In this document: positions 14,228 through 60,360 of the stretch, in pieces | How the letters are laid out: each line of letters starts with the position of its first letter | How positions within the stretch are numbered: position 1 is the stretch's first letter | DNA from: Gordius albopunctatus | Lineage: Eukaryota | Direction: 5' to 3' | Length of the DNA: 64,000 nucleotides | Assembly: GCA_964276515.1 (NCBI GenBank) | Contig: OZ193909.1 | Coordinates: 17,174,001 to 17,238,000 of the forward strand | Position numbers and translations under genes: made by a program | Notes under the pieces: generated by a model | What the model was told of the DNA's origin: nothing | What the model saw: the letters and a program-made list of their open reading frames with translations, nothing else | The model's database searches: none

Positions 14228-14228
14228 A

Positions 14229-14280
14229 CACGTGACCTACGGCTATATAAACGAAGAAAAAAGACGCACCCTCATTCGCT
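14229..14280 (+). promoter_or_regulatory. Candidate Pol II core promoter (E-box, TATA, initiator)
   Basis: CACGTG 14229-14234, TATATAA 14244-14250, TCATTC 14272-14277 with the A 30 nt after the TATA start. Confidence 0.55.
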
Positions 14281-14291
14281 CTTATTTTTTC

Positions 14292-14566: not shown

Positions 14567-14583
14567 ATCCGTTTCCCCGTTAC

Positions 14584-22900: not shown

Positions 22901-23495
22901 AAATAAATTTTGAAAAAAGTGATATTGTGTGATAAATCTATATTTATTGCCTTCCAAAGGTAACTATCAACGGTTGTATTCTTCAGCGCGGAAAATTTGG
23001 ATTAAACATAGGTCCCTTGCGTGGAGGACCCACTAAAAAGATAATATTGATTTAATAGCTAAAATTAGTAACTAAAGTATTTTAATTTAGGTAATATATT
23101 TTAATTAACAAAAATTAAAAATCGAGCTAATTTCAAAAAATCGTCTGCGTTTTTAGGGTATGAACAAATTCAAAAACTGATCTTCCCCAAGTCAAATTCA
23201 AAAATTACATATTAGTTGATTCAAATTCATAATATTTTGCATATCCATAATTAGAAAAATCCTCAAAATTTCAAAAATACAAGTTTATTTTAAAAAATAG
23301 CCAGTATTTCCTAAAGTACACGTTATTTTCATGTTAATTAGACTAATAAATAAATCATAACCTTTGCCAATTACTAATTATTATGCAATAGAAGCATTAA
23401 AGGCACTTCATGAGTAAAAACAATACATTTAAGTACATGAGGATTTGAAACAAGCATATATGTAAGTTTTTAATTTTAAAAAGTATGAAAGGGGG

Positions 23496-26400: not shown

Positions 26401-26899
26401 TTGTTATTTAGTACCTTGAAATGGAGGAATGTTAGGAATTAAATTGGATGATGATGGCTGATTAATATAATTTCCTATTATTGGGCCTCCTTGGAGAATA
26501 TTAAGTTATAATGTATATAATTACCTCTCATTTCGTTGTGGGAAAGAATATCTTCATCTGGAATACCTTCCATTCCATAAATTTCTAATGTTATATTTGT
26601 CCTATGGGGTAAAGAATTAGGCACCTTATCAATATCCTCCTTGTGCACCTAGAGGAAAAGATGAATTTATATGAAATCTACTATTTACCTGTAAGCAGTG
26701 GATTTGCAAACCTGGACCGGTAAATAATCTCTTATGACACATATGGCATTTAAAGTGTTTCGCTTTTTGATGCTGGATGAGAATTTTTTCATCATCAAAA
26801 TCACGATTACAATACCTAACATGCGTTTATAAGCATTAACAAGTATACTAAGATTTACCAGCACCAAGGTTTGGAAAACTTTTTTTTCTTTCGACCCAT
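23496..26899 (-). CDS. ZNF207: BUB3-interacting GLEBS-motif zinc finger protein BuGZ/ZNF207, 10 exons
   Basis: Exons 26859-26899, 26689-26815, 26525-26648, 26415-26489, 26275-26353, 26150-26234, 25973-26052, 25699-25921, 25303-25594, 23496-23866. N-terminus [60 protein letters not shown]...[14 protein letters not shown]-like [21 protein letters not shown]; Pro-rich linkers. Middle and last exon boundaries are less certain. Confidence 0.93.
24226..24947 (+). mobile_element. Helitron-like element in ZNF207 last intron
   Basis: Two tandem copies of the unit at 13130-13340; 3' hairpin gccaaagcaatgcttggc followed by GTAG|T. Confidence 0.7.
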
Positions 26900-32152: not shown

Positions 32153-32690
32153 TGTATATAGCAAAACAACGTTTACCGGGTCAGCTAGTAACTCTATAAT
32201 AAACTCGTGTTTTAATAACAGGATTTAGAAAATCATACGTAAAATTTGAGATGCAGAATACTTATAAAATAAATATTTAATTTATGTTATAAGTGCAGAG
32301 AAGGATTGCCTAAAATATTTCATTCTTACCTAACCCTTCCGACCTATCTGGTCTAATCCCATATATTGCCTGGTCTAATTTGTTTTCATTTGCAAATCAT
32401 ATCGCACACAAATATTTTTATCTTCACCTAAATATTTTATTTATCCTTTGTAGAAGTAATCTCTTCTTCTTCTTTATCAGTTATTTGGTCCCACATTGGT
32501 GGGGTTTGTTTTGATAAGTTTCTTCCATCTTGACCGGGTGAGTGCCATGTCTTGACTAATCTCTTTATTCATAACTTTATCGACTTGCCCTTTCCACGTG
32601 ACACGGGGTCATCATCTTTCTCTCTTCCCCGGTACCTCCATGTCCAGTACTTTTCGATTTACGTCATCCGTGTCCCTTCTTAGTATATGC

Positions 32691-35661: not shown

Positions 35662-38600
35662 CTCTTGATGTAGCATGGATCCGAGGTATGTGAACCTGTC
35701 TAGATTTGGGTAAATTCTTCTTATTTAATTCTCCTATTGTGTTTTCCTGGTTAGTGTTTTCGATTACAGGCCCCTTTTCAATTGATAAATTGCTATAATA
35801 GTCCTACCATCTTTGTAGTATATGGCTGTCGTGTGTTAGTATTTCTGCCTTTTGACCCTTGATTAGCCGGCATTCTAGGTAATCTTTAGAATTTCGGGCC
35901 CTTGACTTTGCGATTTTGTAGATCAATCTTTCTCCTTCCTTGATCTGAGTTTAAGGCTTCATAAATATTTTTCATAAGCCGTATATATGCGTCAGGTATA
36001 TTTTGTTTCCTCAGGCACCGCCATATTAAATCGCGGGGGACCGTATCAAAAGCTTTATCCAAGTCGATAAAAACCATATGTAAGTCTTTCCTCTTTTCAC
36101 CATACTTATCCATCATTTGTCCTAGGGCGAAGATAGGATCGATTGTGGATTTGCCGGCCACGAATCCGAATTGATTAGCCGATATTTCCACCTCATCTTT
36201 CAGCCTTGTTACTAAGATCCTTTCAATAAGCTTCAAGGAGCGGCAAGTTAGCTCGATACCTCTGTAATTGCAGCAGTCCTGAGGGTCTCCTTTGCCTTTA
36301 AATAAGGGTATAATCGTGCTTGCTCTCCACTGATTAGGGATAGGCTCTTCTACCAATATCTTGTTAAAGAGGTTCGTCATGGTGGTGACTCCTTCTTCAC
36401 GACATCCGAGCAATGCTTCCATAGGTATTCCATCTGGGCCATTTGCTTTTCCTTTTTGCATCTTGTTCATTTGTGTCCTAACTTCATCCTCCTGAAAGAG
36501 TTCGACCATACTTATATTTGGCTCAATTTCGGGAAGGGGATCCTTGTCATTTGCAATATTCATAAGTTTCTTAAAATATCCTTTTCACCTTTATATCACT
36601 TCTTTCGGCTTGAATAAGGTTTGACCCTTCTCGCTTTTGACTATTTTAAGAACTCCGACATCGCGACTTTTCTTCTCCCTTATCTTGGCCAATTTGTACA
36701 TAAACCTATCGCCCCCTTTATGAACCAGTTTGTTTGCCATCTCAGGTGTACGCGGCATTCTTCGCTTTTGCAACGGCTTTTTTTGCGGTCCTCTTTGCGT
36801 ACCTGTACTCTTGATAATCCTCTCACTTTTTTCATTTATGCCACCGTCTATATAGATTTTTCTTTCTTTCGATGAAATCTTTAACCGATTGATCCCACCA
36901 CCATAATTCCCTATTCATAGCTTTGCCTCCTTTGGTCTGTCCTGGAACACGAATCGCTGTTTCCTTAATGTCCTGAGGTAGCGTCTCCCAATCGTCGTCT
37001 ACGTCCCTTTGCAACTTACTTGCCCCCAAGAGTGAGGAGGCTTTTTGATGGTATTCTTTGTTCGTCGACGTATCATTTAGCCTTTCGTATCGAATTCGAG
37101 GTTCATAGATCTTTCTTCTTTCGGGAAATACTCTTCTGTCAAGATCTATAACAAGGGGACGATGTTGCCTGGCGATTTCTTCTCCCGGTATTACCTTGCA
37201 ATCCTTGATACTCCATAAGTCCTTTCGCCGTATAAGCAAATATTCGATTATACTAAAATACTTCCCACTTCTATAGGTCACAATATGATCTTCGCGCCTT
37301 TGAAAAAAGGTGTTAAAAATCGCCATGTCATATGCTTGGGATACTTGTAGAAGTTTTCCCCCTTCTTTGTTCTTCAGACCATGCGGATAGCCTCCATGAT
37401 TGCGTTCATACACGAGGCGATCTTTCCCAACGTGAGCGTTGAAATCTGCCCCAATAATTAGCCTTTCTTTCTGTCCTATTCCTTGTATTTCCTTTTCCAA
37501 TGAATCGAAGAATATGTCTTTCTCTGATTCCAAACATCCAATTTGGGGAGCTTACGCGCACACAACGGTTAGGAGGCCCCCTTGATCTGCAATCTTTACC
37601 CACATTAGCCTGTCGGAACAACGCTTGACTTCCACCACCTTATCCTTGAACTATTCGCTTAGAACGATACCGAACCCGTTTCTACGATTTGGTGATCCAC
37701 TGTAGAAAAGATTGTATCCTTCTCCTAATTCCCGAGCTTTCGTTCCGTTCCACCTCGTCTCTTGTAGGCAGGGGATGTGTACATTTCTTCTTTTTGGCAT
37801 CTGTGCGACCTCGATTATCTTCCCCGTCAACGTTCCCACATTCCAGCACGTAATTCGCTTTCTTTCCACAACTAGTTTCCTTAACCGCCTTCGTTGTGAG
37901 TTAAGCAGTAACCCTAGTGTATTTTTCATATTGCACGAGCGGGGTTGGAGAAAGAATACAATTAAATATAATTTAAACATACCTAAAAAAGTTCTTAAAT
38001 TTTACTGTTATTTGGATTTGTCTAATAAAAAATCAGTATTTAATTAAATCAAAATTTTGAGGTTGAGATATTCCAAAATTTTAGAAGTAAATATTGATAA
38101 AAAAAATAAAAAAGTGAATTAAAGATTAAACTCATATTTACCCCGCTCCACCCAATAAAGTTCCTAACACTTATTAAGTGAGTTATATATCTTTGATAAA
38201 AAACTACTTTTTTGTATCTGAAAAATCGAGAGGCCTTATACGCAAGGCGCGGAAATCATAAAGAAATCAATGGCTTAGCGGTCTTAATTCCCTGGCTGGG
38301 GGATTTAATTTTACTCAGAAGGGGTAAACGGCAGCTGATATTTTTGTAAGTTTGCCTGGCTAACTTAGTGGATAACTGGTTTTTTTATAAAGTTATTCCT
38401 AGGACTGTAGTAACAATTTCGCCTTAACTCGTCATTTTACGTCAATTAATAATAGGTTTTCAAATCAAGTTAAATATTCTCACTATTGTTTCCATTTGAT
38501 ATACATTTATAACATATTCCTTTTAAGGAACTCTAACTGCTCTGGCTAGGAGTTTATATACTTGAACTTATGGCATTATAATAATTTTTTTACCGTCTAT

Positions 38601-39477: not shown

Positions 39478-42400
39478 TTATAGTTTCAAAGTTTTTTATC
39501 AGTTCTTTTTATAATAAAATATAGTTAGAATTTTTAAAAATAAGTGTAAGTTACAGGATGTGTTAAATTTAATTAAATATTTATATAATTACCTTTACAC
39601 ACATCTAATTATAATAAGTAAATTTTTGAGATGATCTTAAACCTCAACAAATATTTAATTATAGTTTTCTTTCTATTAATATATAATATTTTATTTTTAA
39701 TTTTTTAAAATTTGGAGGTGTATAAAATGAATAAAACTTGTTACTTGATTGATTCTTATCTGGACAATCTAAATTCGATAAAATAGTTATGGATGTATTT
39801 GAGTATTTATATTAAATTATAGTTTAATTAAAGACATTATTTTTACATGGACATATCTCTCGCAGGGTGTATACTAATTTACAAAAATTTTAAAATTATA
39901 TAATAAAAAAAGATTTATATTAAGAGTTTACCTCAAAATTTTTATTGCAGTGTTATTATTGGAATAGAAGATTAGAGAAGTTTTAAAGTTAAGATACTTA
40001 AAAATGAAGAAAAACCATTTTCCCTTACGCATATCATTGAGTGAAATATAATTAGAGCTGTTAAAGGATCTAGTTCCTTTTTTTCTCAATTTATCGCAAA
40101 AGGAACTGCTTACAAGTTACTTTTAAGTTCCTTTTGCCAATTTCAATTTGCATTAAAATTTTTTAAATTAATTTATAATTTAGTATTTTATTCACGGTAG
40201 TGTTTGTTAAATAAATTTTTCGACTTAATTTATATAAAGTGAAAGCAAATATTTTAGAGGATATCAATTTGTTTTTTCCTAAATCTCAACAGGCTGGACC
40301 TATTTTATAAGAAATGGATTTTTTTGAATTAAAAAATGATGAAAATAATGAATCAATTGAACGTTACTTTGCTTTCTAATAACCGGAATTTAAGTCTTTT
40401 AGACAGTTTTCCCCATTAAAAAAACTATTTATTAAATATAATACGCCACTACCATCAAGTTCCCCTGTGGAAAGATTATTTAGTTTGGGCAAAATTTTAT
40501 TTGGAGACAAGCGAACATGTATTTTAGATGACAACTTAAATAATATTTTGTTAAAATCAAATAAACATTTATTACCTGATGATTTTTATAAATTGTAATA
40601 TATAATATATTGTTTTTATGGATTAATAAAAGATGTTTGTACATTAAAAAAAAATTTAAAAAAGGAACTTCAAAAGGAACTGGAACTAGTTCCATTTTAG
40701 GCAAAGGAACTGGAACTTGACAAGTTCCTTTTTAAAAGGAACTTTTAACAGCTCTAAATATAATATATATTTTTTAAACTATAATATATTATAAATGTCC
40801 AATTTTTACGGTAGTTCTGAATTGCTTTATTAAAAAAAATATATTATAACGATAAAGAAAATTTACTGGAATCTATAAAATTTAGCAAAAAAACAACTTA
40901 ATAGTAATTATGACTTTGGTTGTAGGCTTCTAAGGTTTCCCCCGAATAAAAATATAAGTTGCATAATTTTAATAAATGGAAAAATATATACATTTAAAAA
41001 GATAATTAAGCGCGTCAAAAACATCTTTTCATAAAACTTTTATAAAATAGTACTGGATAATAGTGAATAAAATTTGATATAAATATTATAATATTTTAGT
41101 TTTAATAAAAAAAACAAAAAAATTAAACTACGCTTATGAAAAATATATAAAGCATCATGTTATATAGATTTTACCAAGGACGTGGTGGGCTTCTGAATTT
41201 TAAAAACATACATAGGTAATTAATTGTATAAAAAATTCCACTTTTATATATTTAATTTCAAATTTTTAAATAGATATTTCGCAACTTTTATACAACTTAC
41301 GATCAAAAATTGTGTTAACTATGTTTTTGATATTTAATAATTAAATAACACTATCAGATCAATAATAATAAAACTGCTTACAGACATTGGATAGGTGCGC
41401 TAAATATATTTATGAACATTATATATATATATATATATGTGCAACAAAATTATGTTTTGTATTCATGTAATTATATAAATTGACTCTTGTATTTGTTCTC
41501 GGTTTGAAGCGTATAACTTTCTAGAATATTTAATTAATGGATTTATTTTTAAAATATAAAATCGCTAATTTACCGTAGGGGTCTAATCTCACTAATTTTA
41601 AAGGTTACAGTTAAAATACGTAGTATCAAATAAATGATTTTACCTGTAGAAACATTTAATGACCCTAAAATATTTAAGGAAATAAAATAAAATAGTGTTA
41701 ACAAGTGATTATTAAAAAATAATAATTATTATTATATACTAGCGATAGAATATTTTTCCATAGTTTCTAAATAAGAAGTTTGTCAATATTAATTCAATGA
41801 TTGCAAAAACCAGTATTATATGATTATTATAAATTTTTTACCTTCGAAGGCATCATCTATATTGGTATATTGGTAAGTAGTTTTAGACATATTATTTTTG
41901 ATTTAGTTTAATTTTTATTACTATTCATCTCAAGCGCTATATAATCTAGATTAACTAAAAAATAAATTTATTTATTTAATTATTAAAATATTTATTTTTA
42001 CTTTCAAACGTGCTCTGGTTAAAGGTTAATTCATCTATAAAATATAAAACAATAGGAATTAACATTTTGATAAAATATTTTTGTTAGAGATATAGATAAA
42101 AAATATTTAAAATATCTTTAAAAGTTTAGATATGAATTAAATTTTGTTAATACTTGGACAATTTTTAATCATATTATTATAGATATTATTTATTCTAATA
42201 AAATCTCACTAGTAATACCGTTAAGGTTTAAGTCTAAAGATATGAGTTCAAAAAGTTTTAAAAAATAAATTTTTATAATTATAATATATTACAAAAATTT
42301 TTTATAAAATAGTTGAATATAATTATTTACTCGAGATATATGTATCATTGATGGCTTCTAAAAATAAAAAAGAATTTAATGTAATTTGTAAATATAATTA

Positions 42401-45400
42401 TTAAAAAAGCTCAGTATATAAATTTACCAACCTAAAACTAAAAAACGATGAATATAGTTTTAAAATTGTGGTAAAATAATATTAATTTTAGCTTTACAAC
42501 GTAATTTTTAAAAATTACCTGCTTTGATGTTGCTTTGAAGGGTCAAATCTGTTCGATTTCGTAATTATTTTAGATGCCAATTTTAAGTTAATGTAAAATT
42601 AACAAGTCCTATAGTTTTATCATACTTGCGCTATCAATTTTTTCTTTCATCTCTGTAATTTTTTGTAAATAATTAATAAGCTTCAATCTAAGACTTATTA
42701 AATGTTTATATTTAAATTTGTACCTTTGCATATTGAATCTATGAAGAATTTTTATATTGTAATTAAACTTATCTACAAGTGGCCGTTTAAAGTGAGAAAA
42801 TATGTATCACAAAAATCATTCCAACGTGTTTCTATGAGTGCAACCATCATTTGTCAAATCAGAATGTTACATTTAAAAACATTTTTAGCCAAACTTAAGA
42901 AAATTTTGACCTTTGTAATTTATATTTTTCCTAATATTTTTTTTTTGGGGGGGGGGGGAAATCTATGAAAAGTATTTTTTTGTAAAATAATATAAAAGAC
43001 GCGTTCCACCCCTTATATATAGACCCATTTTATTATGTTTTAATATTATAGTCTATGATTATACAATACAAAATTTGATATGAGAAACGAAGGTTAATTA
43101 AGATAAAATACCGTTGGGCCAATACTTTTGGTAATCTTATGGAATATTATTTAATTTTATTCAAATTTAATAATTAAATTATACAAAAAATAGATATAAA
43201 CTCCTTACAAAGACAAAGTGAGAGAGATTTATCTAAATATAATATTAAATATCTTATATTTGTGATACATAATTTTATTACTTATTCGATTGACGTATAA
43301 CTGTTGCCAGTTGCATACTATAAAATAACAAGTTTTTTAATTTGAGATTCTTTAAATGTTTTCTTGTAATAAATATTGTAATACTTGCAATGAATTGCCT
43401 AACTGAAGAAGTATTATATAAAGGGTTTAGGTAAAATATTTTCTTATATTGATATTACCTCGGTCGGTTAAGATTGGATAAGGAAAAGTGACATTTTTTA
43501 TTCCTAAAAACATATACAAAAATTATATCGATAATTTACTCATTAGTCCTGCTGTAGCATTCGCTAAATCAAATATTATGGAATAAAAATTAATTTTAAA
43601 TTACAATTTAAGCTAAAATATTTGATTATCATTACCGAACCGTTCTATAAAGCAAAATTAAACAGAAATTGAGGAATAATGTTTAACTCGTACTCTATAG
43701 AAACCTTGCAAAATTATATAGGCAAAAAGAAATTAAAAATAAATGTAGAAAACATTAATTCAAAAAATTTATCTAAAAATTTAGTAAAATTAATATAAAG
43801 CATAGCAAAAGTAAAAGTTGTGGTGAGAGCATAACAACTTGCCTTTAACTAAAGGTGCTAAAAATAATTGTTTGTAATAAATAGGTCAGGATTTTGTAAT
43901 AACATAATTATAAATTATACTATCATACCGAGGTGATCTAAATATTTAATATAGTAACCCATTTATTTGCAATCTAATTTTTTTACAACGGTTTATAAAG
44001 AATTAATCTATATTAGGTTAAATACTTAGTTGTGTTTTAAAGTGTCGCTCTATCATTTCTTCTATAATTTAAAATAACAAAGAATTAATATCATCAAGAA
44101 AAACGACCCAAAATTTATTAATTGCTAAGCTATTCATGTGCCATCCCTCTCTAGTAGAAACTGTGCTGTCCTAAATGATTTCAACCTCTGCTTACCAAAT
44201 TGACAGTAATTCTACATACGAATGAACTGCACGGGCGTCGCCCAACCCAGCCCGAGGTGGTTCTTTAATGCAAAATCTGCCTAAAAGTTTTAATCTAAAC
44301 AAGCATAAGTCTAGGTTCAAGTCAGGTCTTATATAAAAAAAGATTTTAAAGTAGGGACGGGCTTGGACAAATTAAAAAGATAAATACTTTGAAGCTTGAC
44401 ACTAAAAGCACATGGCTTTTCGGAGCCGAATTCAGTTTGTACTGTTCAAAATCTTAAAATACTGTTCGATCATAAAAAATTTGAATGTTTAACGATCAAG
44501 TGACAAATTTGATAAAAGTTCACTTGGCATCCAACTTTTTAAAGGATTTAATTTTATCATCGCGAAGAAAAGCTATTACAAGCATAGACAACATAGACTG
44601 CTCATCACGGTATAAAATGTGTGTGTGTTCTTCCGCCATTTTGATGAACACTACCGTCCTATATCACATAATGGCGTTTTGCGCTGTGCCGTTTTGTTCG
44701 AACAGGAGAGGTAAAGAAAAAAGGTTTTGATTCCATAAATAAGTAAGATATTACAAAATATATGATATTTTTAAAAAATATATTATTGACACATTTAATA
44801 AAAATTAAAAATGTAAAAACTGTAATGATATTAAAATTTTTTAAAAATATCATATATTTTGTAATATCTTACTTATTTATGGAATCAAAACCTTTTTTCT
44901 TTACCTCTCCTGTTCGAACAAAACGGCACAGCGCAAAACGCCATTGCGTGATATAGGACGGTAGTGTTCATCAAAATGGAGGCAAATTTCACACACAATT
45001 TGCCATATGGAACATATGACATGGGCAGTCTATGTAGTCTATGATTACAAGCCACAGAGATGAGAATGATACGGTTGTTCTGATAATCAAAACCTAGGTT
45101 CTGCATCCCAAACCTCGACCTGAGCTTCATCCCGAAAGTCAACTTGAAAAGCTTCAAGTCCATTTTACACCCAACCTGAAACCCCAGGTTGACCTCAGGT
45201 AGAGGCCTGCACGGGTCATCCGAAATCCGAACCCGATCCGACCTTAGAGTCGGGTCAAAGGATATGAATCTTACATTACAAAATGAACGAAACGTATTTG
45301 TTAAATTAATGCTATTATCTATAATTTTTGTAAAACAATATCGAATTGTATAACTAATTATAATCATTCATTCATATAATCCATTTCCTTTCCTATTTTT

Positions 45401-48400
45401 TTAATTCGTTTAATTTGGAGGCAAATTTAAATTTAAAGCTGAATCACGAAAGGTAAAATAACAAATGAGTATTTATTATTCTTTATTTAACTAAATAAAG
45501 TTATAACTAAATATTCATAAATCAACACGAAATTGTAGACGCCAAAATATTTATACATAATTATTATAAATCAATTTAAATTTATCAATGAAATTTTGTA
45601 TGATGGTTTCTGTCGAATAAATTTTTCATCCTCAAATTTTTCTACTTGGTCGGGTGCGGGTTGAAAATTTAAAAACGCTTTCGGGTCGGGTGGGGTTGAA
45701 AAAAAGTGATTTTGCAGGCCTCTAACCTCAGGTTAGCCTAGAAAATTCTTTTATTTATGTGATAAATTTAAGTATAAATTTTTTCTTATTTTAAATATTT
45801 TCCTTTATCAAGATGCACTAAATTTTTTAAATATTCACAATTTTAAATAAATAAAAAATAGGTTGTTGTTATTAGTTTTCAAAAAAGTTGAGTAATTTTT
45901 AATATACAAATGATTTAAATATTGAAAATGTTATTTTATAAAAGCGCCATCTATGTATTAACAAATTTTCACAAAGCGTTGGGATGCATTCTATTCCACG
46001 CATTCACATAGTATATAGTGCTATCATACGACGGCACTTCAATCAATTGTTTTACCCGAAGGTGCACATATATTATATATTGCATGCGCGCCCCCTTGTT
46101 ATCTCACACGTGCTAAGCTAATCATATTGCATTGCAAAAACAAGCAAATAAAGGGGAGAGGGAGGGGGAGGTGAATTAAGGCAGGAATGAGGGGTGTGTC
46201 TAGGTGGGAACCGGGTGGGTCAAGGTTGGAAGGGAGAATTGCAGCAGGAGAGAACGGGGTGTGTGTATAGTTCCCACTCCGAAGATATCATAACGATAAG
46301 GTTTACAAGATAGATACGCATGTAACACACACACCCTACCCAGCCCCATAATTTTATCACACAACAATCTGCTATGCTACTACATAGTATATGCATAGAC
46401 TAGATAGACTGCTCATGCCATATGGTTAATTGTGTGTCAAATTTTCCTCCATTTTCAAGAGAGCAACTGGTGTATTTAAACCATGTAATTTTGCCTTATA
46501 ATTATAACAGTCAATTTACTTTCTCCACTAGTTTATAAATTAAAACGAACGTCAATAAATGAATTATTGATGGCGCTATATTATTAAACAAACTTTAATC
46601 GCAGTTTTTACATGTTTAATTTTTATGTATTGTGTAAATGATATTTATTTTAAAATGCTGTTTTTGATATCTACCCAATTCAATATTTATTTATTTACCT
46701 TTTTAAGATTATTAAATTTGCGAAAATTACTCATTTCTATATGATCACCACTTGACCATGTTCACATCAAAATGGTAGAAAAAGGGGTACACAATTTATG
46801 CGTTGGTGAGCAGTCTATCAAGTCTATGCGTAGTATATGCATACAATGCAATGCATCCAAAGCTTCATGAAAACTTGTTAATATATAGTATAGATGTTTA
46901 ATATTAAAATCATTTGTATATCAATAATTTCTCAATTTTTTTAAATAATAACAACAAACTGTTTTTCCTTCATTCAAGTTGTGAATGTTTAAAAAAATTA
47001 TTGCATCTTGAAAAGGGGAAATATTAAATAAAATATAAAATTTATACTTAAATTTATCACATAGAAAAAGAATTTTCTAGGTTAACCCGAGGTCAACCTG
47101 GGGTTTCAGGTTGGGTGTAAAATTGACCTGAAGGTTTTTCAGGTTGAATTTCGGGATTAACATCAGGACCTAAAACCGACCTCAGGTTGAACCTCGGGAA
47201 AACCTGACCTAGGTTTTGATCATCACTAATACCTTGGAGCTTGGGGCATACTAAGCTCTACCATATGACGAATGACTTTCTCGTGACAAAAATTGGGTAT
47301 TAAACCTATGGCGGACGTGATTAACGAAAATCGGCTAAGGTGGAATGGCCATATACTAAGAAGGGGGAAGAATGATGTAAATCGGAAAGTATAGGACATG
47401 GAGGTACCGGGGAAGGAAGGAGGAGGACGAGCTCGTGTTACGTAGAAAGTAGTGTTGTAAATTCGGCAGGGTTTTGTTAGATCGACCCTTAGTTTTGGTC
47501 GATTAAACATTAACAAACAAAAGGTTTTTTGGTCTGATTTTCTTGGTCTACCTCTAGGCTTAGTCAAAATTTGAAAAGCAGACCAGAGTCGACCGTTAGT
47601 CTTAGTATAACCAAAGATCGACCAAACAAAAACCAGTGTTTTTACAACACTAGTGGAAAGGGTAAATCGACAAAGTTATGAAATCTAAGAAAGACCAAGA
47701 TGGAAAAAAGTCATCAAAACGAATACTTGATAAAGAAGAAGAGATTTAACAATAGATGTCTTAAGTTCCTTATACCGAAGTCCTTCTTTTTAGGAACATT
47801 AATAACATAGCTTAAATTCGGCACTTGATGGTATCAATTGTGATAAGTTTAAATGAAACACTTTTTAAGCACAAAAAGAAGGATCAAGATGGAAAAAAGT
47901 CATCAAAACGAATACTTGATAAAGAAGAAGAGATTTAACAATAGATGTCTAAAGTTCCTTATACCGGAGTCCTTCTTTTTAGGAACATTAATAACATAGC
48001 TTAAATTCGGTACTTGATGGTATCAATTGTGATAAGTTTAAATGAAACACTTTTTAAGCACAAAAAGTGTCATCTCAAATGTTATTTGAAAAATATTTTT
48101 TATTGTGACTAATCAGTGCAAATAATCAATTGATTTTGTCGTGATTACCAGTATTGGAAAGCTCCCTCTGTAAATCTGTAAACGTAAATTTTTAATCGAG
48201 ATCAATATTTGGCAAATTTACAAATAATGTTAAAAATTAAATTATTTTATCGTTAAAACCTGTATTGTTTTTCACCATTGACCCTGAGAAAATGAAATTT
48301 AAAAAGGTTAATATAAGTTTTTTTGGTAATTAAAAATATTGAATTGAATTACTTCTTTTTGCTAACACATATTTTAAGTCTTCAAAGCAAAAATAAATTA

Positions 48401-50846
48401 TTTGTAAAAGGAATAATAATTAAAATCATAATTAAATAGTAAGATTTTAAATTACGATAATGTTTCAACGCTGTAAAATATTTTTTATTTTTAGCTAGGT
48501 TAGTTAAAAATATGTTCAACAAGATAAAAATTAATTTAACCCACCAGTTTCTTCCAGCGATTTAAAGATATTTTTGCTGTATGTAGTGTCTGTAATAAAT
48601 AGGTATAAATTAGACTAAAAAATGAATTATATTTTAAAAGTATTTTTAAGATATTTTTCCCCTAAATACCAGATATCTATATTGTTTAAACGATTTGGTA
48701 TTTTAAAGATTGGCGAGAATAAATTCATATTGTTAAAATTTGAATGTATGTTAATATTAGTGGAGATCGGAGGTCAGATTTGTTTGGAATTTTATGCCCG
48801 AACCCGGCCCGGTTTAATTTTTTAACTTCATTGCCCGCCCGAAACATTGGAGCTGCCCGAAATGCCCGGCCCGGAATATTAAATTTGCCTGTTAGGCCCA
48901 ACATTTTGCGATCCCAAATTCTTTCAACCACTAGTAAAAAATAAGCATCAAATTAATGGCATATTTAATAAATCAAATATAGCAATATTTTATCATTCCG
49001 GACAAAATCTAAATTCCAATATTATTTAAAAGTCGAATGATTTTCCCAAGTGAAACTTTTGAGCTTTAATCTTAATCCTAATAGGTCAAAAAAAACCTAG
49101 TATTTGGTCTTTCTAAAAATTTGGCCATAGTTTCTTTAAAATATTGGCATCACTGGCAAAACCGCTTTAGGTCACAATATTTTAGTATATTAATTGCTAA
49201 TGCATTTAGGTACAAACATGGTGGAGCGTTTACAAATCATGTAACAGCAATGTATTAATTAAATGCAGCCGATGTCCATGAAGATATTTATGTAGCAATT
49301 TTTTAATTATGTTTAAAGTACACATATTTTTATAAATAATCTTACAATAAGCAAAATTATACTCCCCTTTTAAGTTAACCCGTTTAAGCCCCTGCCCTAT
49401 AAATAAACTTCTTGTGAATAAAATTAGCTCAATTAGTCAATCTGTGCTCTTAGAACTTACTTTTTTGATAAAAAACAATAATTTACCAATAGAATTTAAA
49501 TGAATTTATGGAAAATTTTTTTTAGTTTAAAGCAAAAATAGAAAGGCATAGAAATTTATTGTTATAAAAATAAGTAATAGTTTAGCGATAGCAACGAGTT
49601 TTAAGGGAATAATATAGGCGAATTGGGGAAGCTTTGTTAAACCAAATCAGATTTGTTAAAAATATTAAAAGATATTAGAATGAAATTTAAGACTTGTACG
49701 CATTGTGTCAGTTTAGGCATGACGCTTTTTATCACGTATAGACGGCGCACATGTGAATTACGAACAATTAAAGGGCTACATAAATATAAATATTTCTATC
49801 CTTTCCATGAACGTAGTTAAGGATGGATAGACTTGATGGAAATAGATTTGTTCGGGCAAAATAGAAATAACTTAGGGACGGATGGCGAAATCAAGTTTCT
49901 TACTCTTTTAGCACTTTCATATACAATCAAATAAAAAAGTAACAAAACAATACATTATCTAAAAAATTTCATTAAGCCCGAATCCTATCATGGTGGCCGC
50001 CCGAAAATAAAAATATATGGTGGAGATAGCAAGCACAACTATATAAAATATTGAATCATCTTTAATTACACCAACATATGTTTGCAAATTTTTTAAATAT
50101 AGCTCTTCAATTTAGATTTAGCCTTTTTAACACTTTATATTTGCCTTCAATTTTGTTAGCCTAATAGTGATAATTGAGTAATAAGTGATTCATTGATTAA
50201 CTTGAAGAGACTTCACGTTCCACTTGTCCTAAATAATTGTTATAAAATGGTTTGAGCATACGCGTTATTAATTGTTATAATTTCTATATTACTTATAAAT
50301 TCCCGCACTGCCAATTTGGAGAAATAAAGCAAACCATAAAATGTTTATATATAGTGTAAAATCATGGGCATAGCCAGGATTGAAAGTAGGGGGAGGCGAT
50401 AATACTTCAGATAGGTAAAAGACCTTAAAGGTCTGTAATTTATTTTTAAATATAATCTTAATGTAATGTTGGGGGGGGGGAGTCTGGTTATACCATGAGC
50501 TTAATAGATTTAAAATGCCTACCCATATTATATATTTGTTCTGTAAAATCAAAAATTAAATTTTATATTCAACGAATTTAATGATATTTTTTATAATATT
50601 ATTACACATTGTTTACTATTTGCACTGAAAATTATCTCATCTAAAGAGAATAGACTATAATCCTGTACAGAATTATTCTTACATGCGTAAGCCACTATTT
50701 ATGTTTATAAATATTATATTTGGTAAATAAGGTTATAATATTTAAACTTACAAAACGTTTGGTATTCTGTTTGAAGAACTAAAGCACATAAAATTAGTGT
50801 AATTTTAATTAAAAGTCGCATTATATTTTGCACTTACTGCGTATAA
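39478..50846 (-). CDS. Micro-exon array, downstream block (~41 symmetric phase-1 exons of a putative secreted glycoprotein); termini unresolved
   Basis: AG/GT-bounded stop-free exons: 50838-50846, 50752-50766, 50683-50694, 50617-50640, 50523-50540, 50293-50307, 50202-50228, 48541-48576, 48456-48470, 48353-48361, 48260-48283, 48149-48175, 43929-43937, 43843-43857 (GC donor), 43636-43644, 43540-43563, 43459-43503, 43385-43402, 43282-43317, 43209-43232, 43112-43135, 42724-42738, 42626-42652, 42519-42548, 42331-42357, 42219-42233, 42002-42034, 41922-41936, 41842-41856, 41740-41766, 41644-41664, 41574-41582, 41382-41399, 41301-41318, 41175-41192, 40867-40872, 40810-40824, 39847-39873, 39745-39768, 39593-39604, 39478-39504. 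Confidence 0.75.
40053..40756 (+). mobile_element. Internally deleted hAT transposon with dimerisation-domain remnant
   Basis: TIR tagagctgttaaa/tttaacagctcta, perfect 8-bp TSD aatataat, GGAACT subterminal repeats, frame LKKLFIKYNTPLPSSSPVERLFSLG (~40410-40560) typical of hAT C-terminus. Confidence 0.92.
44583..45043. mobile_element. P-element-derived foldback MITE with inverted THAP exon-1 copies
   Basis: CATAGAC TIRs, perfect 8-bp TSD attacaag, ~144-bp near-perfect arms (44635-44778 / 44836-44979) each encoding MAFCAVPFCSNRRGKEKRF*FHK. Confidence 0.9.
45200..45724. mobile_element. hAT-type MITE
   Basis: TIR tagaggcctgca/tgcaggcctcta; perfect 8-bp TSD acctcagg. Confidence 0.92.
46394..46828. 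mobile_element. P-element-like MITE
   Basis: TIR catagactagatagactgctca / tgagcagtctatcaagtctatg; flanking repeat catagtatatg/cgtagtatatg. Confidence 0.85.
47450..47652. mobile_element. hAT-type MITE
   Basis: TIR tagtgttgtaaa/tttacaacacta; TSD gtagaaag/gtggaaag. Confidence 0.88.
47696..48067. repeat. 189-bp tandem duplication spanning a LINE tail and its flank
   Basis: 47696-47878 and 47885-48067 nearly identical. Confidence 0.92.
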
Positions 50847-51154
50847 CTAAAACAAATACAGAAATAAAGATGTAAATAATTTATAGTTAATTTTTAAATT
50901 GGGTACACTATTCTCAAGTTTATAAAGCAGGGGCGTAGCAGGATTTGTCAATGGGGAGTGAACGCTTTTATTTATATTATCATAAAATACAAATTTTAGG
51001 TCAAATTCATATTAGATATTGTAATTTTATAGCGATTTTTTCTTTGAGCGGGAATTTTCAAAAAATCATTCTTACATTCTATTCCTTAATTTAGGTTTTA
51101 GTATAATGCGCGTTATAAAACTGCGCTCATCCGTGCATGTGGTAATCGGATATT

Positions 51155-51329
51155 CACGGGCGTAGGCAGTATTGGAATTAGAGGGGGGCAATAATGATTT
51201 CGGGAGGGGTAAAATGATTATTTTTTGAATATTTTCAGACATAATTTTAATCTTTTTAAGGAAATCTTTGGATTTAGAGGGGGGCAGCCGCCCCTCCCTT
51301 CTACCACCCCCCCCTTAGCTACGCCCTTG
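51155..51329. mobile_element. hAT-type MITE (CATGGGCGTAGCC family), reverse orientation
   Basis: Reverse complement of 18874-19041; no clear TSD. Confidence 0.8.
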
Positions 51330-52216
51330 GTTACATAGGCAATGGCCTAATTATAAATTTTAAGGATGATACGGCGTCAGAAAATTCTACGGGCTACACA
51401 ATTCAATACTTTGAAACTACGTCATAGGCCATAATAAATAAAATTATGATATTATAAATGTTTGGGCTCTTTTTACCACCTAATTAAATAAGGTTAACGC
51501 AAAATTTTGTTATATCGTCTAGCAAAATAATTAATAATTTTTAAAAATTCAATTTGAAAGTCACCAAGGTCTTGCTTCACATATCACGATCGTTGTTGAC
51601 TTAAGTGTAATAGTTATTGAATGTACCTCAACCTATTCAATTCGAATATTTTTTACGATTCAGCAAATCGAAGTTATTTAAATCAAAATCACACATTTGA
51701 TTTTATTAGTTGGTTCAAAAGCACACATAGAAGTAAAATCGATAAAACAGTAACAAAATGCATCATTAAAAAAATCTAGCTTCCCACACTGGTCATGAAT
51801 CCGTAGACAACTAGAAAATGCAATTAGCAATAAGAATGTCAAATCTCCGTTAATACGACCAAAGGGATGAAAATATTAGAGTGCAATAGGGTTTTTGTAT
51901 TTGTGGTTTTTCAAACCCACGACAATAAAGAGAAGGTTTTTTTGTTGTTTTCAGGGAAGCCAATAGGTCGATTAAAGGCATCAGGGCACATAAGTGGCTG
52001 CAACGAGGATCAGATGGCATACACTGCCCTTATATTGTCTAACTTATTTAAATTCGTTTGCCAGACAGTGTAGGGGATAATTAGCATGTTCATGATAAAG
52101 TGAATGCTATTGCGATAAGTAAATGACTTCGAAAGTTTTATCCTTCATAGACTCACTCTTGAGTGCAAGGAAGCTGCAAAGGGATAGACGACGATTGAGA
52201 AACACTATCAACAGCA

Positions 52217-55200
52217 TCATCGCGGAGAGACTGCTAGGTACTCATGTAGCAGCCTTTCGTTGCCTGAGCCAATAAACAGATAGTACTTTATATTAGAATT
52301 GGCTTTGGTCTCCACTAATAAGATATTTTGATGGAATTTATTAACTAAATTATTACGAATGGATTTTATACGCAGAATGTTATTAGGTAATAGAATAACT
52401 CGTTGATGGTCAAGATCCTTTTCTTCTGCCTCTGCTATTGCTTACCAAAAGTGATATGTAATTGATAAATATATAATATTAGAGGAAATTATATTATTCG
52501 AATTGCAGAATTACACACAAGGTATACAACTTTTAATGGCATCTTAAAGCTAAGTAGTATATTAGTAGGAGTGTCGTATACATTTGCTATAACTTTTCTA
52601 CCTTTAATTAATGACATTTTTAAGGAAACATCGTTATGAATTATACTTTTTAAATAAAAATTATGGTACAAGCATTAGGCGTATGTATTTAAGTTAACAA
52701 GAGGTTTTGAAATAGAAAAACAGAAGGCTAAAAACATTTGTTGAAAAAATGCAATAGTAAAAAGAATTGCTGAGATTTCGAGTTATTTAAAAGTGACTTT
52801 TATGCGAAACCAATTAAATATTTATTTTTATGATAAATAAAAAAGTTTCAACTATCAAGGCGGTGGGAAAAATACGCACTCGCTTTTGCAACGTGACACT
52901 TTAATGCAAGAAAGACAATCGTCATATTCAGCATTATATGGTAAAGCAACAGTCAAATCTGATGTAGGTGAATTAAAAGAGCTTAACAATTTATTTCTTC
53001 TAATTTTACAGTGGTGGTTTATTAAAATTGAAATTCTGATTAGCTGCAACTTACGCCCGAATATTGATGTTTCTATAAGATTTTTGCGGTATTTAATATA
53101 ATTCCATTATTACAAAAGTAAGTTGGAGCAATATTTTGTTAAATGCTTCGAACAAAAATAATATAGCAATGACTTACTTTCCCTTTCTTTATATTAAAAT
53201 ATGTTTAAACCACGATGTGAATTTTATGGCTTTAATGATATATAGTTTTGTAAAAACGGCTGGGTTTGGTAGATCTTTAATTTAACTAAGACTAGCCGCC
53301 GAATCTGGTGTTTTTTTAAATTTTGACCAAGCTTGGAGATTGACCATGGAAAATAGACCAAAAGACCCTGGTTTTGTTTATGAAAGGTTGGCCAGACAAT
53401 CCCAGTCGTTTTTATAACACTAATGATATACCTGCTTTATCATGCATTCGAGATTCTATTCCAAATATTAAGATTTGTTAAAAAAAATAACGCTACTTGT
53501 TTTTATATTTTATCTTGTAATGAAATCTAATATTTTTATAAGTTTAGCTAATTATATCATTACGGATAAGAGAAGCCATCGCTATAAAATATTGATCAAA
53601 ATTAAGCCACAAAATCACTTTAAAACCATAAGTTATATTACAGAATGCGGATAGGATGCGGTTTTCACTATAAGCTAAAAAAAATATTATTATTTTATGA
53701 ATAAGATTTTTGTAATTATGTTACGTGTAACTGGAGTTATCATCTCTTTATATACATAAAAACAGTTTAGGTATATATATCAAATAAGTGGTAAGCTTAC
53801 TTATCTCTGTTAAATCTAATATAGGAACAAATAAAAACAAAAATGATAAATCTTTTAATTTTTATCAATTTAATTTAAAGCCTTAAGCTTATAGCATGGT
53901 AGGTTTATAATTTAAAGACCTCCGGTTAAATATGCCGTCTCATGGGGGTAATCAGGTTGGGAACTAAAGGGGCACATTAATTATTTAGAGAGGGGCAGAA
54001 TGTAAATTTTTTGAAATTTTACCTATAAATCGTATTTAATTATTAAAGAATTTTCGGATTTGTAGGGGGCAGCTGCCCCTCCCTGCCCCCCCCCCTGCCT
54101 ACGCGCATGTGACGTCTCAACTTTACAAATTATTTAATACCTTTTTCAATATCTTTTAACAATTTATCTGCATATCGTATATAATATAATGTTTAGTTTT
54201 AGTATATTTTAATACATTAAATTCAATCGACATACCCACTGAGTTTAACAAATCTTTAGAGAATTTATAGATAATTAGATAATACACGCATATGTCGTCA
54301 ATATAAAATAATAAGTCATTTATGTGTTTAAGAATTAGTTTTTTTTCTTCTATTGATAGCCCTAAAATAGTAACTCCTCCAAAATTAAAATAAATATCAA
54401 AACTCAAATATCTATTTGTCTTTAATAGTATTAATATAACCTTATAAAGCAAATAATATATGTCTACAAAATGGCTTACAATATAATAATAATATATGAT
54501 AGTATCGATAACGGTCCCATATATAAAGATGCGATTACTTTTTAATATTTAGATGTAAGAAATATTTGTCAAGGATTTTATCATTTTTATCTTCAATAAA
54601 AATTAAACATTGATTAACCTGTTACAACGCATGCCTGTAAGATTCCTTGATAGATAAGAAAAATAGATAGTTATTTTACACATATGTTCAATGATATTAA
54701 TTGATAGAGTTGTTATATTGCTAACTTTCTTCAACTCCAGCTACCATCTGCTCGAGTTTCTGCTCGGCCCTCGAGCATTTTTTTATGCTACTGCTCTGCC
54801 TAGTGCACCAAACAGCGAGCACATATTGTGCTAACGCGCATATTAAGTAACTCATTGTGCGTGCTCGGGTCTGGAGTTTGAAGAAAGTTAGCAATTTAAC
54901 AACTCTATTAATTGATCTTATATTCAAACTAGGATACCTTTGTACAACTCTAAAGAGCAAATGTTGTGCAATTTATATATAATTTTTAAAAATCATCTAA
55001 TTCTAAAATAATTTTTCAAATTTTAATTTTTTTCAAATTTTCTTTTGACTTACGAACGAAATTCTTGTGCAAGTCGTGCAACACTTCGTCTGTAATTTAA
55101 GAAAAGTGTTAAAGTTAGGTGTAGTTGTGCTAATTAGTATAAGCCATAGACTGCTCAATTATGCTTATAATGGTTTCTGCTATGACCTATATATTTATTT

Positions 55201-58200
55201 TGATTAAAAATGTAAATCATTTTGAGTTTCATCAACATGCGCTTTTGAAAAATAAAGTATTGTATAAAAATTAATAATTATTTATAAGTAAAATAAACTT
55301 TCATAGCGCCATCTACATCTGAACTTATTTTCCAACATGAATTTTGGGCAATTCATATGGTTTGATGAATTTTTAAAATTGCTATAATGGTTAAAATGGG
55401 TTTTTCATGTTATAAGATTAATGATTATTGACCAATACAATCCATCGCTATACAAACTATACGTCACTTCTCAAAATGGTGGTCGTTTTTTGCAACACTT
55501 TTGATGCGTGTGAATATATAAGAGATGAGCAGTCTATTACTCTATGGTCTTATCATTAAAATGTCTAATCACATTAGACATTAGCTAAATTATTTATCAA
55601 AATGTTAGATGAATATTCCTTTTGTACACAATAACCTTCAAAGGAACTTATGTTCACTGTTTGGTGAATTATGACGCTCGAATCAGAATTTAATATGACT
55701 GAGAATGTTTTAGCAATACAACAGTATATTATGGGCAGTGGAAACATATATTGCTTTTATATGCAGTGACTCACCAATGTGCTTGTAATGCGGAGATACT
55801 GTTGGCAATAATGAGGATACCAAATTTATTTATTTGAACTTATACAGATTTATTAAGAGCGTGAATGATATTTAGCCAAAATAGCGCATAAATAATCTAG
55901 AATATAATCATTTTAGTTAATAAGATTATTAGGTTTTATAGAGAAGTTGCAAAATGCTTACAATGTAACACATCTAAAGAGTCCACTAAATAATATGTAC
56001 TTAAAATAGGTTTGCTAGTTTTTTAATTTACGTGTTAGCTTCAATTCTTTTCTTAAATCTAAGAAGAAACAGATGAATTATAATTTTAATATCAAGACAT
56101 TTATCCCAGAACGATGCATCCTGGACTATTAATTCTAGAGGACATATCATTTCATAAATACTAATCTATTTTAAATTATTAGTTTATACTTATAAATTTT
56201 GAAATTGAGATGGAGTCAGGCGCGTAACCAGGATTTTCTCAAGGGAGAGGAAAAATTCAAAAAAAATTTCGACACTTTTATTTATAATGTAACAAAAATA
56301 AACTTCGCGTACAAATATCATCATTTAGATAAAATTGAATAATGGCGGAAACAAAAGCAAAATTATATGAGTTTGATCTGAAAAAATTCTCAAGTTGCTA
56401 ATATGCAAAATTATACAGTCACTCAATCTGTTTACTTGACATTTTTGAGTACAGCTAAATGAACGATGTTTAGATGAACAAAAAACAAGTTTTTCATAAT
56501 TTACAATCGATGGTGGATAATTATAATGGTGGGTGGGGTAGTGCAAGCTTTTAGTCGAAAATTAAATTCGGAAAAATGAATGTACATATTATGTTTCCAG
56601 GCTTTTATGAGTGTCTCAAAATCTTTTATGCAACTAAATTATAATATTTTAAACCATTTAATCTAATTATTAATCAAAAAAAATTCAAATTTTGGTCAAG
56701 GGGGTAGAAAAGTCTCGCTTTTCGCCCTCTTGGCTACGCGCTTGTGGAGTCCTATATAATATATGTTAATTGATAGCACGTTGGCAAAGCTTCATGTTTA
56801 GTTATAGCCTTACTTTGAGAGCTTGATTCTAGATATTAACATTAATTATACATTCCACTATCATTCTAAATATGTTTGGCATAGACTAATTGCTTGCACC
56901 ATTATTATTTATGCAAACGCAAGTGTGTCAAATTAGAGATTCAAATAATAAACTAAATTACTTCTATTAATAAGGTTAGGGCATAAACCTATGACGCCTC
57001 CTTTCTTTTAAAACTTAAACACTTTTCATTGCCATTTTTAGGGCTATCTCATTCTAATTTTCATCGCACATATCAATTTTTTGAATTACATTCGGAGGAT
57101 GATAATCCCTTTAAATTTTACAAAATCATTAAAAACTTAAAGATTTTTTGTATACTATGAAATTAAACAGCGTCTAGATTTCAACGATATAGAGAAAGGA
57201 AAAATAGAAAACCAGTCATCATAAGTCTTCTAAATAGTTGCGATCATAAATGGAAATCTTCTGTGTATGTCCAGGGATAGAAAAAAGAAAATGTTGAATC
57301 TTAATAATTTCAAAATTCCCTACATGTAACAAAATTCTAATTTGTAAAAATCATCATTAAGGAAGCCCCCTTACACTTTATACTGCGTTTGTATAAGAGA
57401 ACTCATGTGTTGTCATGATGAGGCGCCGCTGTTAAAACATATATTAGGAAAGTATTACCCAATTTGCTAATGTTTAGGTCCTCTAAACCAAGTTAAATGT
57501 TTAAACAATGATGGGAGGAGAACTAACACGAATAATTTTACTTGGAGATGTATGGAGAAGACTTGAATATTCGAAGGCTTTATATCAAATTTTGTGAATA
57601 GAATCGTATAAATAACTAATACACAATTATGCTAATACAGGAATGATATTAAAATATCAATTTAAATTTGTGTGTATATGACAATTATAATTTATTTGAT
57701 AAAACGGGCGTAGGGAGGGGGAGGCAGAAAGGTGCTCAACATTTAATATTATGATGGCTAAAATTACAAAATATTACCATTTTTCACTGCCCTAAATCAA
57801 TATTAACCCCCTCTAATTTCAATCCTGCCAACGCCCATGTTTTAATGAATGTATTTTATATATCTAAATATGACTAAATATATTTAAACTGCCAGTTGTT
57901 ATATACATGCTTATTTTTAAATTTACCCTTTTCTATCAAGTCTAAATAAATTATAAAATTTATGAATAACATTACATAAATAAATTTATACCCAAGCAAA
58001 CATATTTTTATCACATGAATGTATCTAAGATTTCAACAAAGTCATAAAAATTCCTATACCTTTTATAAAATGTCTAGCCGTTTCAACTAAAACAATTTTA
58101 AATGTGATAGTTAATTCTCTTAAATTTCTTACCTAATAGCACATTATCATCTAATGTAAACATTAATTGATATGTTATATATTAATTCAGTTTTGTAGCT

Positions 58201-60360
58201 ATTAAGTTCCTGATATAAAATTATATATAGGTATATTGTATAAATGACTATTTCCAACTTTGATAAGTTTTATATAAATAACAGAAACCCCTAGGGTTAA
58301 CTTTTGAAATTAGAATATTTAGATTTTGTGATTTATTAGATTGGTATAAAAAAATTAGATTCAGGACTAAGAACTATAAAAACGCGCTAAAACTAAACGG
58401 ATGGCATTGATCCGTGTATGGAAATCATATGGGATTTAAAAATTTAAAATCTCATATATTTGGATTTTTATCTCGATTAAAGATAAAATTAAAATAACTT
58501 CTAACTTTTAAAAATTATTGTTGAATAAAATCATTAATATTTCTTGATAATAGATGAAAATTTAATATTGTTTAAATAATAATTTTCGCCAAAATGCTAA
58601 CATTTTCTATTATACTAAAAGATAATTAAAATAATATAAAATAGTTATTAGTTTACATGTAGGCTCTTCTTGAACTTATATTATATTAATTACAAACACT
58701 CAAAAATTATTTATACTTTTATATATATAGACCAGTTTCTGATAGTATTGATCTATTGTAAATTGCATAAGTCATAAACCAAATATATCAATTAAAATTA
58801 TAGAATAAAATTAATGTATAAGTATTTATTTGACTATATTTATAGCTTTACTTATATGCATCATAATTTTGTTCAACACTACGATATGGTCAAAATTCAT
58901 TTATTTCACATTTATTTACTATATAAAAAATGAAGCACACAAATTTAGATAGATGGATTACTTAAAGAATTTTCTAAAAATATACGTTTAGGTTTGAATT
59001 AAAATAGAATATCAAAATTAATTACAGAAAAGCAATTTATAAATATAAGCAAATATGAAACCCAACAAAATCATCAATAATTTAAACTTATTATTTTGGT
59101 CGGGTTTTATAAAAAATAAATTTCATTAATAAATAAATGATAAAGTGTCTATATTTTTGTCAGCCCACAAATATTTGGAATATTTATATGTTTATTAACT
59201 TGAGGAAATGACTTATCATAATTTGTTATTGTAATGTGAATATCCGTCCGATCAAAAATTATAATAAAAACATTTTATATTATGTATAAATTATCCTTAC
59301 TTTGGCAACTGTCGATAATCTTAGTCTCTGTAAAATTATACAACGAACATTTATATTTATTGATACAGCATTACAATCACTAATAGTCACCAAATGTTAA
59401 TAATTAATAAATGCTATAAGAAAAGTTTTATAAAATGTTTTTATAAAAAGGCGTTTGAATATACCTAAATTTTTGATTTCTCGCTGAATAACTATATAAA
59501 AGAACAAATTTATTATAAAAGTAATATATATATTGCTCACCTTGACTCGAAGCATTGTATTGTAGCTCTAAAAAAGTTATTTTAAAATTATCATACTATA
59601 CTTTCCAAATAACAGTTTTATATTTTTTTTAATAAGTGCCTCCCCCCCCCCAAAAAAAAAAATTAAATGTGTCCTTCCATTTTTAGATCTAGGACACTGA
59701 ACAGGAAAAAATAGACTTTTTTTCCCTAAAAGACACCCATCTTACAGTAAATTTGCTTATCGGTTAATTTAAAAAATCTATATATATTACACATTTCTTA
59801 CCATAATTACTAGAGCTAAAATGCTTTTGACCTAGCAAACATTCATAAATGTTTTCAGCGTTTAAAATTTCAAACATTCTAACAATAATTTAATGAGTAT
59901 ACTTTTAAGATCGTCTAAGATTTTATTAGTGTAAGGATAAATAACAAACATATATAATAGTTGCTAAAAAAGCATACCAAGAGGTTGAAGAGCCAAATTA
60001 TCAACTAAGAATAAAGGCAAAAAGTTGTAAAATATAAATAATTTTTTAATAAAAGGTCTTATAAAGTTTTAAAAAATCTCACTTTTTTCAATAGTCACTT
60101 TAACTAAATCGGTTAAATAAGTTGCTGATATGATAAGCTAGTTAAACTTACAAAAATCGGAAAGACATTCAACATTATGCCAATAATGTAGGTCCCCATA
60201 CACTAAATAAGTGATTACGAATTAACATTAAAATAGTTTATTTCTTAATGGCTTAGTTTAGGTTTGTTTAATTAGCAAACCAAACTGTTTTAAGATGATT
60301 ACCTTTCGATAAAAGGGGAGCACACAATAATACATAAAAGTTGGCGAACCAGAAATTCAT
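52217..60360 (-). CDS. Micro-exon gene, upstream block: signal-peptide exon plus ~30 symmetric phase-1 exons; putative secreted glycoprotein
   Basis: Exons 60303-60360 (MNFWFANFYVLLCAPLLSK), 60152-60202, 59978-60004, 59802-59831, 59541-59567, 59465-59491, 59301-59327, 58962-58973, 58852-58878, 58717-58752, 58657-58674, 58133-58150, 58060-58086, 57927-57941, 57542-57577, 57459-57482, 56962-56988, 56814-56828, 55962-55973, 55775-55798, 55636-55656, 55054-55089, 54938-54949, 54236-54253, 54141-54167, 53801-53815, 53642-53674, 53564-53581, 53432-53455, 53178-53186, 53055-53072; possible terminal exon 52217-52434. Confidence 0.78.
53243..53422. mobile_element. hAT-type MITE
   Basis: TIR tagttttgtaaaaacg/cgtttttataacacta; perfect 8-bp TSD atgatata. 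Confidence 0.9.
53941..54109. mobile_element. hAT-type MITE (CATGGGCGTAGCC family)
   Basis: TSD tgccgtct/tgacgtct. Confidence 0.85.
54705..54907. mobile_element. hAT-type MITE with ~36-bp TIRs
   Basis: tagagttgttatattgctaactttcttcaa / ttgaagaaagttagcaatttaacaactcta; perfect TSD ttaattga. Confidence 0.92.
55145..55546. mobile_element. P-element-like MITE
   Basis: catagactgctca ... tgagcagtctattactctatg; internal similarity to 46394-46828. Confidence 0.7.
56217..56744. mobile_element. hAT-type non-autonomous element
   Basis: TIR caggcgcgtaacca/tggctacgcgcttg; flanking 6-bp repeat tggagt. Confidence 0.8.
57703..57839. mobile_element. hAT-type MITE (CATGGGCGTAGCC family), degenerate
   Basis: Same internal sequence as 18874-19041; ends acgcccatg. 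Confidence 0.75.

Follow-up and report, generated by a model that had tools for sequence, protein, structure and literature searches.

Secreted proteins encoded by many very small exons have been described from aphids and schistosomes. Aphid bicycle genes have a signal sequence and a mean of ~17 small exons, nearly all of the internal ones starting at codon position 2, i.e., after a phase-1 intron (Stern and Han, 10.1101/2021.09.24.461719). The megacycle gene has 118 exons over about 100 kb and encodes 2092 residues (10.1101/2021.09.24.461719). Bicycle proteins adopt saposin-like helical folds (PMC13552887), and most carry CYC motifs, although some lack them (10.1101/2021.09.24.461719; PMC13552887). 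In the micro-exon genes (MEGs) of Schistosoma mansoni, 10–20 exons, mostly of 15 nucleotides (nt), are separated by introns of 0.1–5 kb and encode proteins of up to 189 residues (PMC10526429); isoforms generated by exon skipping have been demonstrated for Schistosoma MEGs (PMC4015677). The pea-aphid gene KQY1a has 37 exons over 45.7 kb, 33 of them of 15 nt or less, and the KQY/KHI cassette effector genes belong to multigene families for which isoforms and salivary expression are known (PMC7495047). Here we describe a locus on the minus strand of a 64,000-nt stretch of contig OZ193909.1 (the window, positions 1 to 64,000) that, on balance, probably holds one gene of 50–60 exons, mostly spliced in order, for a secreted, mostly α-helical glycoprotein of ~360–530 residues.

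In design, the closest match to this locus is the aphid bicycle/megacycle genes, ahead of the Schistosoma MEGs. Like bicycle/megacycle genes, it has many predicted micro-exons, almost all of which begin at codon position 2 and encode peptides of helical character; its first exon may supply an N-terminal signal sequence comparable to theirs. With ~55 exons, the gene would lie between a typical bicycle gene and megacycle. Unlike these, it has no detectable internal repeat, its introns are mostly shorter than 150 nt, and no C-x-C (CYC) motif occurs in the 67-exon model described below, in which residues of split codons are unread. Bicycle genes belong to sternorrhynchan insects, whereas the host here appears to be a nematomorph, since a neighbouring gene groups with Gordionus. 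The published bicycle gene-structure classifier (cut 0.72) gave ~1.0 for models of 45 and 67 exons (logits 35.6 and 51.5), a result that concerns structure only and does not prove homology. True homology to bicycle genes, through deep ancestry or transfer from an insect host, would account for the classifier result and for what the genes share, namely intron phase, a signal-like first exon, micro-exons and a helical product, and the missing CYC motif has its parallel in some bicycle proteins. We nevertheless consider it very improbable, because the classifier reads gene structure and neither motif nor repeat was found. A phase-1 intron after the signal peptide is, moreover, common in genes for secreted proteins. 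Also against homology, bicycle genes were found only in aphids, phylloxerids and coccids, and not in psyllids, whiteflies or planthoppers (10.1101/2021.09.24.461719).

An earlier reading of the same letters (the first-pass annotation) had taken Schistosoma MEGs alone as the model. The signal peptide-like exon and the micro-exons with lengths mostly divisible by three, which form most of the coding sequence, agree with this, as does the presumably parasitic lifestyle; in phase and exon number the aphid genes are closer. Unlike Schistosoma MEGs, the locus has 45–67 predicted exons (~55), a modal exon length of 27 nt, a median gap of 83.5 nt and a product of ~500 residues, and belongs to a different phylum. 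It resembles KQY/KHI genes in that a predicted signal peptide is followed by miniature exons, and differs in that the exons of KQY1a are mostly ≤15 nt over 45.7 kb, compared with a mode of 27 nt over ~21 kb here. Because it departs from them in host, CYC motif, repeats and size, we assign the gene to neither the bicycle nor the MEG family. The design is a known one that would be new to the phylum; the pattern itself is well founded, whereas the mechanism is a proposal.

To quantify the pattern, we scanned 39.4–60.25 kb for AG..GT segments of 6–60 nt, scoring splice sites blind to length class and frame. The plus strand of the same region, forty block-wise local dinucleotide shuffles and the remaining minus strand of the window served as controls. 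At a score cut of −0.5, 47 of 71 minus-strand segments had a length divisible by three (binomial p 1.6 × 10^-8). All but one of these (46/47) were open in phase 1, compared with 27/47 in each other frame. On the plus strand, 10 of 45 segments had such lengths, and 4 were open; the shuffles (n = 40) yielded a mean of 9.7 and a maximum of 16 open segments of this class, and the minus strand outside the region gave 37 of 90, with 18 open. The excess held at all five score cuts (p 10^-5 to 7 × 10^-9). The first-pass annotation had suggested this very comparison with the plus strand and shuffled sequence, and the enrichment it expected was found. Splice weights were also trained on one half of the region and applied to the other at a cut of 0. 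On the minus strand, 16/26 and 20/25 segments per half were then divisible by three (16 and 18 open); on the plus strand, the numbers were 4/16 and 4/12 (2 and 0 open). The excess of tiny frame-keeping exon-like segments is a real pattern.

The window is AT-rich (G+C 22–45% per 2-kb bin), and DNA of this kind will supply AG..GT segments by chance. That chance accounts for the array as a whole is hardly credible: 46 open segments compare with a shuffle maximum of 16, the excess survives cross-validation, and the helical signal described below is absent from controls. Chance does account for some calls, namely ~10–20 in a list of 70 by cross-validation arithmetic, as the first-pass annotation had itself suspected. 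Subtracting half of the picks not divisible by three from those that are gave 45 true exons (cross-validated) or ~52–56 (whole region). Since greedy picking may displace true exons, the method leans low. We estimate the true exon number at 45–56; the ~70 proposed earlier was probably too high.

The putative gene starts with a 58-nt exon (60303–60360, minus strand) that is translated as MNFWFANFYVLLCAPLLSK and has a GT donor in phase 1 at its end, as previously reported. Its signal-peptide-like product has a hydrophobic, uncharged core (8-residue hydropathy 2.8). Of the 8 signal-like first-exon candidates across the window, no other combines phase 1 with the minus strand. A Pfam search of its frame gave no match. 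By hand we listed 67 candidate internal exons totalling 1506 nt, including all eight segments quoted before. Their lengths were most often 27 nt (17 exons), followed by 18 and 24 nt (10 each), and the gaps between them had a median of 83.5 nt, with 43 of 66 at ≤150 nt; the mode of 27 nt and the usual spacing of ~40–150 nt given in the first-pass annotation thus hold. Both splice scores were above 0 in 45/67 candidates, the other 22 carrying a score ≤0. The 17 exons of 27 nt showed a weak in-register likeness (p 0.037), and DNA alignment scores between exons were low (best 24), so these comparisons make no case for recent duplication of exons. An open reading frame scan of this region found three frames of 100+ codons, all of them chance or repeat-linked.

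Joined, the 67 internal exons give a model of 533 residues (~360 with 45 exons), in which no membrane segment was found (highest 19-residue hydropathy 1.47) and nine exons bear cysteine. In the hand list, N-glycosylation sequons lie inside exons more often than expected (9 versus 3.4, p 0.006). The helical hydrophobic moment of 37 hand-list peptides was 0.369 compared with 0.313 after shuffling (p 0.004), while the moment at the β-angle was not significant (p 0.85). Helical amphipathy was found again in three exon sets picked blind (p 0.005, 0.01 and 0.005); all 6 control sets fell short of significance (p 0.14–0.59). Neither the splice-site nor the stop criteria enter into this helical signal, which is the best sign that the segments encode a folded protein. 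In the hand list, helical phase was kept from one exon to the next (p 0.022, 27 pairs), as it was in the strictest blind set (p 0.013, 9 pairs); this continuity is suggestive only. The peptides resemble fragments of a folded, helical protein. Segment excess, cross-validation, sequons and helicity together lend statistical support to the earlier proposal of a micro-exon gene for a secreted glycoprotein.

How are the exons used? The spliceosome would join the symmetric exons mostly in order into one transcript, crossing introns of 36–150 nt, as short as those in ordinary genes of the window (introns ~33–41 nt, exons 41–127 nt, mixed phases). Since every internal exon is symmetric, exons could be duplicated, lost or spaced by transposons without breaking the frame; skipping would likewise be tolerated. 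The product would be a fast-changing secreted helical protein working like that of an aphid bicycle/megacycle gene, and by analogy its most likely site of action would be the worm surface or the inside of the arthropod host. We take the likeness to the bicycle design as convergent. Exon skipping may happen to some degree and is not required.

Skipping would be central if the locus were a MEG-like combinatorial system, in which skipping in many combinations would let one locus produce numerous related secreted variants and so blunt host immune recognition. All candidate internal exons are symmetric, just 61 of 2346 possible forward joins would create a stop, and weak splice sites are frequent (the 22/67 noted above). 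There is also precedent: up to seven variants from Schistosoma MEGs (PMC4015677) and 2–4 isoforms from pea-aphid KQY/KHI genes (PMC7495047). Against this stands the character of the peptides, amphipathic helices with some phase carried over junctions. Exons of 7 residues, which would keep the helical register when skipped, are rare (2/67), while the commonest, of 9 residues (17/67), would flip the helix face by half a turn. None of four terms for splicing variation occurs in the available text of the bicycle paper (10.1101/2021.09.24.461719). On this evidence we think large-scale combinatorial skipping unlikely, though it deserves consideration.

Several observations weigh against our preferred reading of a single gene spliced mostly in order. 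We infer its joins, exon order and last exon, and its role against a host rests on analogy. The hand list was picked with the claims of the first-pass annotation in view. Junction stops were 0/68 in the joined model, which is not significant (p 0.09); neither are the 3 sequons across junctions (p 0.23) or the cross-junction helical phase in the other two blind sets, which were picked less strictly (p 0.15 and 0.24). Codon-position bias was seen in control picks as well (p 0.009 and 0.006) and G+C was alike; we rejected both as coding evidence, as candidates were not separable from controls. No internal repeat was detected (best self-alignment 33 versus 32.4 ± 4.7 in exon-order shuffles), a weak test on an uncertain chain. 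Finally, the tree of the neighbouring ZNF207 gene, by which the window is assigned to a phylum (see below), omits 5 of the 21 chosen rows for lack of the N-terminus and includes no nematode by name.

The candidate exons fall into six minus-strand clusters. Cluster A (57927–60202; 13 exons, 10/13 with both splice scores >0, here called strong) comprises 60202–60152, 60103–60083, 60004–59978, 59914–59903, 59831–59802, 59567–59541, 59491–59465, 59327–59301, 58973–58962, 58878–58852, 58150–58133, 58086–58060 and 57941–57927. Cluster B (53055–57482) lies amid repeats and has 14 candidates (10/14 strong), the isolated ones being the likeliest chance calls: 57482–57459, 56828–56814, 56058–56032, 55985–55962, 55798–55775, 55089–55054, 54949–54938, 54645–54619, 54253–54236, 54167–54141, 53815–53801, 53581–53564, 53186–53178 and 53072–53055. 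The 6 candidates of cluster C (50217–50846; 5/6 strong) are 50846–50838, 50778–50752, 50694–50683, 50640–50617, 50540–50523 and 50228–50217, and the 5 of cluster D (48149–48589; 3/5 strong) are 48589–48545, 48470–48456, 48379–48353, 48283–48260 and 48175–48149. Cluster E (40867–44061), the largest, has 25 candidates (16/25 strong): 44061–44026, 43937–43929, 43644–43636, 43563–43540, 43503–43459, 43402–43385, 43317–43282, 43232–43209, 43135–43112, 42738–42724, 42652–42626, 42548–42519, 42437–42432, 42357–42331, 42233–42210, 42034–42002, 41954–41922, 41856–41842, 41766–41740, 41664–41644, 41591–41574, 41399–41382, 41318–41301, 41192–41175 and 40872–40867. Cluster F (39478–39873; 1/4 strong) consists of 39873–39847, 39768–39745, 39604–39593 and 39504–39478.

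The first-pass annotation had placed the system at 39478–60360. Its start stands; at the lower end, the gene probably extends to a candidate last exon at 39357–39320 (minus strand, phase 1, acceptor score 2.4), which would add 11 codons followed by TAG, with an AATAAA at 39206 beyond it. Alternative last exons were considered and rejected. A 65-nt minus-strand segment at 39932–39996 with a strong donor is closed in phase 1 and falls outside the symmetric chain; it may be a chance call or an asymmetric exon.

The long gaps between candidate exons contain repeats. Nested repeat and transposon-like sequence (44582–48067), recognized by self-BLAST, long inverted repeats and gap sizes, makes up the bulk of the longest intron, which spans 4087 nt. 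Within it, a near-perfect 166-nt inverted repeat (44614–45001, 95%) has arms 56 nt apart; an arm opens a frame that we take to resemble the N terminus of a THAP domain, for which Pfam gave no match. An intronic high-copy element with inverted arms at 40052–40757 (ends set by eye) resembles a miniature inverted-repeat transposable element, and contig depth reached 3 × 10^4 to 6 × 10^5 at 40600–40779 compared with ~100–900 on the covered flank. A candidate exon at 40464–40453 was dropped, as it sits inside this element. Two sequencing runs from one study, examined over 1341 bases of the locus, contained DNA-like contigs (one of 568 and one of 454 letters) that cross introns with no splice joint and are uninformative on splicing; they showed one intronic difference, at 41285, and left 11–12 of 30 bins uncovered.

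Transposon-like insertions of up to ~4 kb break up the array, and support for cluster F and for the last exon is weak, as might be expected of a recently dead gene or of at least two shorter micro-exon genes in tandem. We consider either improbable. A split gene fits poorly with a minus strand that has just one signal-like first exon in phase 1, and 46/47 of the segments divisible by three are open. Closed picks of this class (11/79) were not above the chance prediction and thus give no hint of exon decay; likewise, early stops behind unused strong acceptors were not enriched in phase 1 (16, 14 and 15 of 55 by frame). A single functional gene remains our preferred reading.

The window likely belongs to a nematomorph other than the Gordionus sp. 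with available sequence, because its ZNF207/BuGZ gene (22980–26899, minus strand; 3′ end set by eye) groups with that of Gordionus. This gene has ordinary exon sizes and mixed phases, and its first introns are of 40–41 nt. Its third exon is 82% identical to the Gordionus sequence versus ≤76% for 11 other matches, 85 of its first 97 residues are identical versus ≤78 for 15 others, and the tree pairs it with Gordionus (support 99/96). As a second taxon marker, a ZNHIT1-like exon gave no match among 25 candidates.

Among the papers that our searches listed, we found no report of nematomorph micro-exon genes; subscription papers and supplements may still bear on novelty. In the available text of two nematomorph genome preprints, the words exon, intron and secreted are absent from one (10.1101/2024.06.11.598342) and exon and intron from the other (10.1101/2023.06.26.546503). 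The latter gives only 10,320 predicted genes for Gordionus. Genes such as the one proposed here escape open reading frame scans and are hard for short-read mappers; an entire class of secreted proteins may therefore be absent from nematomorph annotations. Little is known of the molecules released by horsehair worms into their hosts. We tentatively raise the possibility, speculative at present, that a third parasite system of micro-exon secreted proteins, next to the MEGs of schistosomes and the bicycle genes of aphids, arose independently in horsehair worms. Its members, overlooked by annotation, would form a family that is secreted into the arthropod host and that varies as exons are gained, lost and skipped, which would make it a candidate set of tools for evading host immunity or for the water-seeking manipulation. 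If so, a third animal parasite lineage would have the same odd design, and one could ask whether that design serves splicing variation or evolutionary change.

Elsewhere in the window, a zf-HIT gene, which we take to be ZNHIT1-like, lies on the plus strand at 11100–11790; its last intron, ~33 nt long, is stop-free in frame. A G+C-rich plus-strand element with repeated short segments occupies 13739–15124 and contains a frame that presumably resembles the RNase H end of DIRS/Ngaro retrotransposons, although Pfam gave no match. Broken copies of long interspersed nuclear elements (LINEs) lie in opposite orientation at 35886–38001 (minus strand, with an RVT_1 match at 35889–36584) and 29880–32199 (plus strand), and further LINE fragments were found at 241–720 and 47226–47675.

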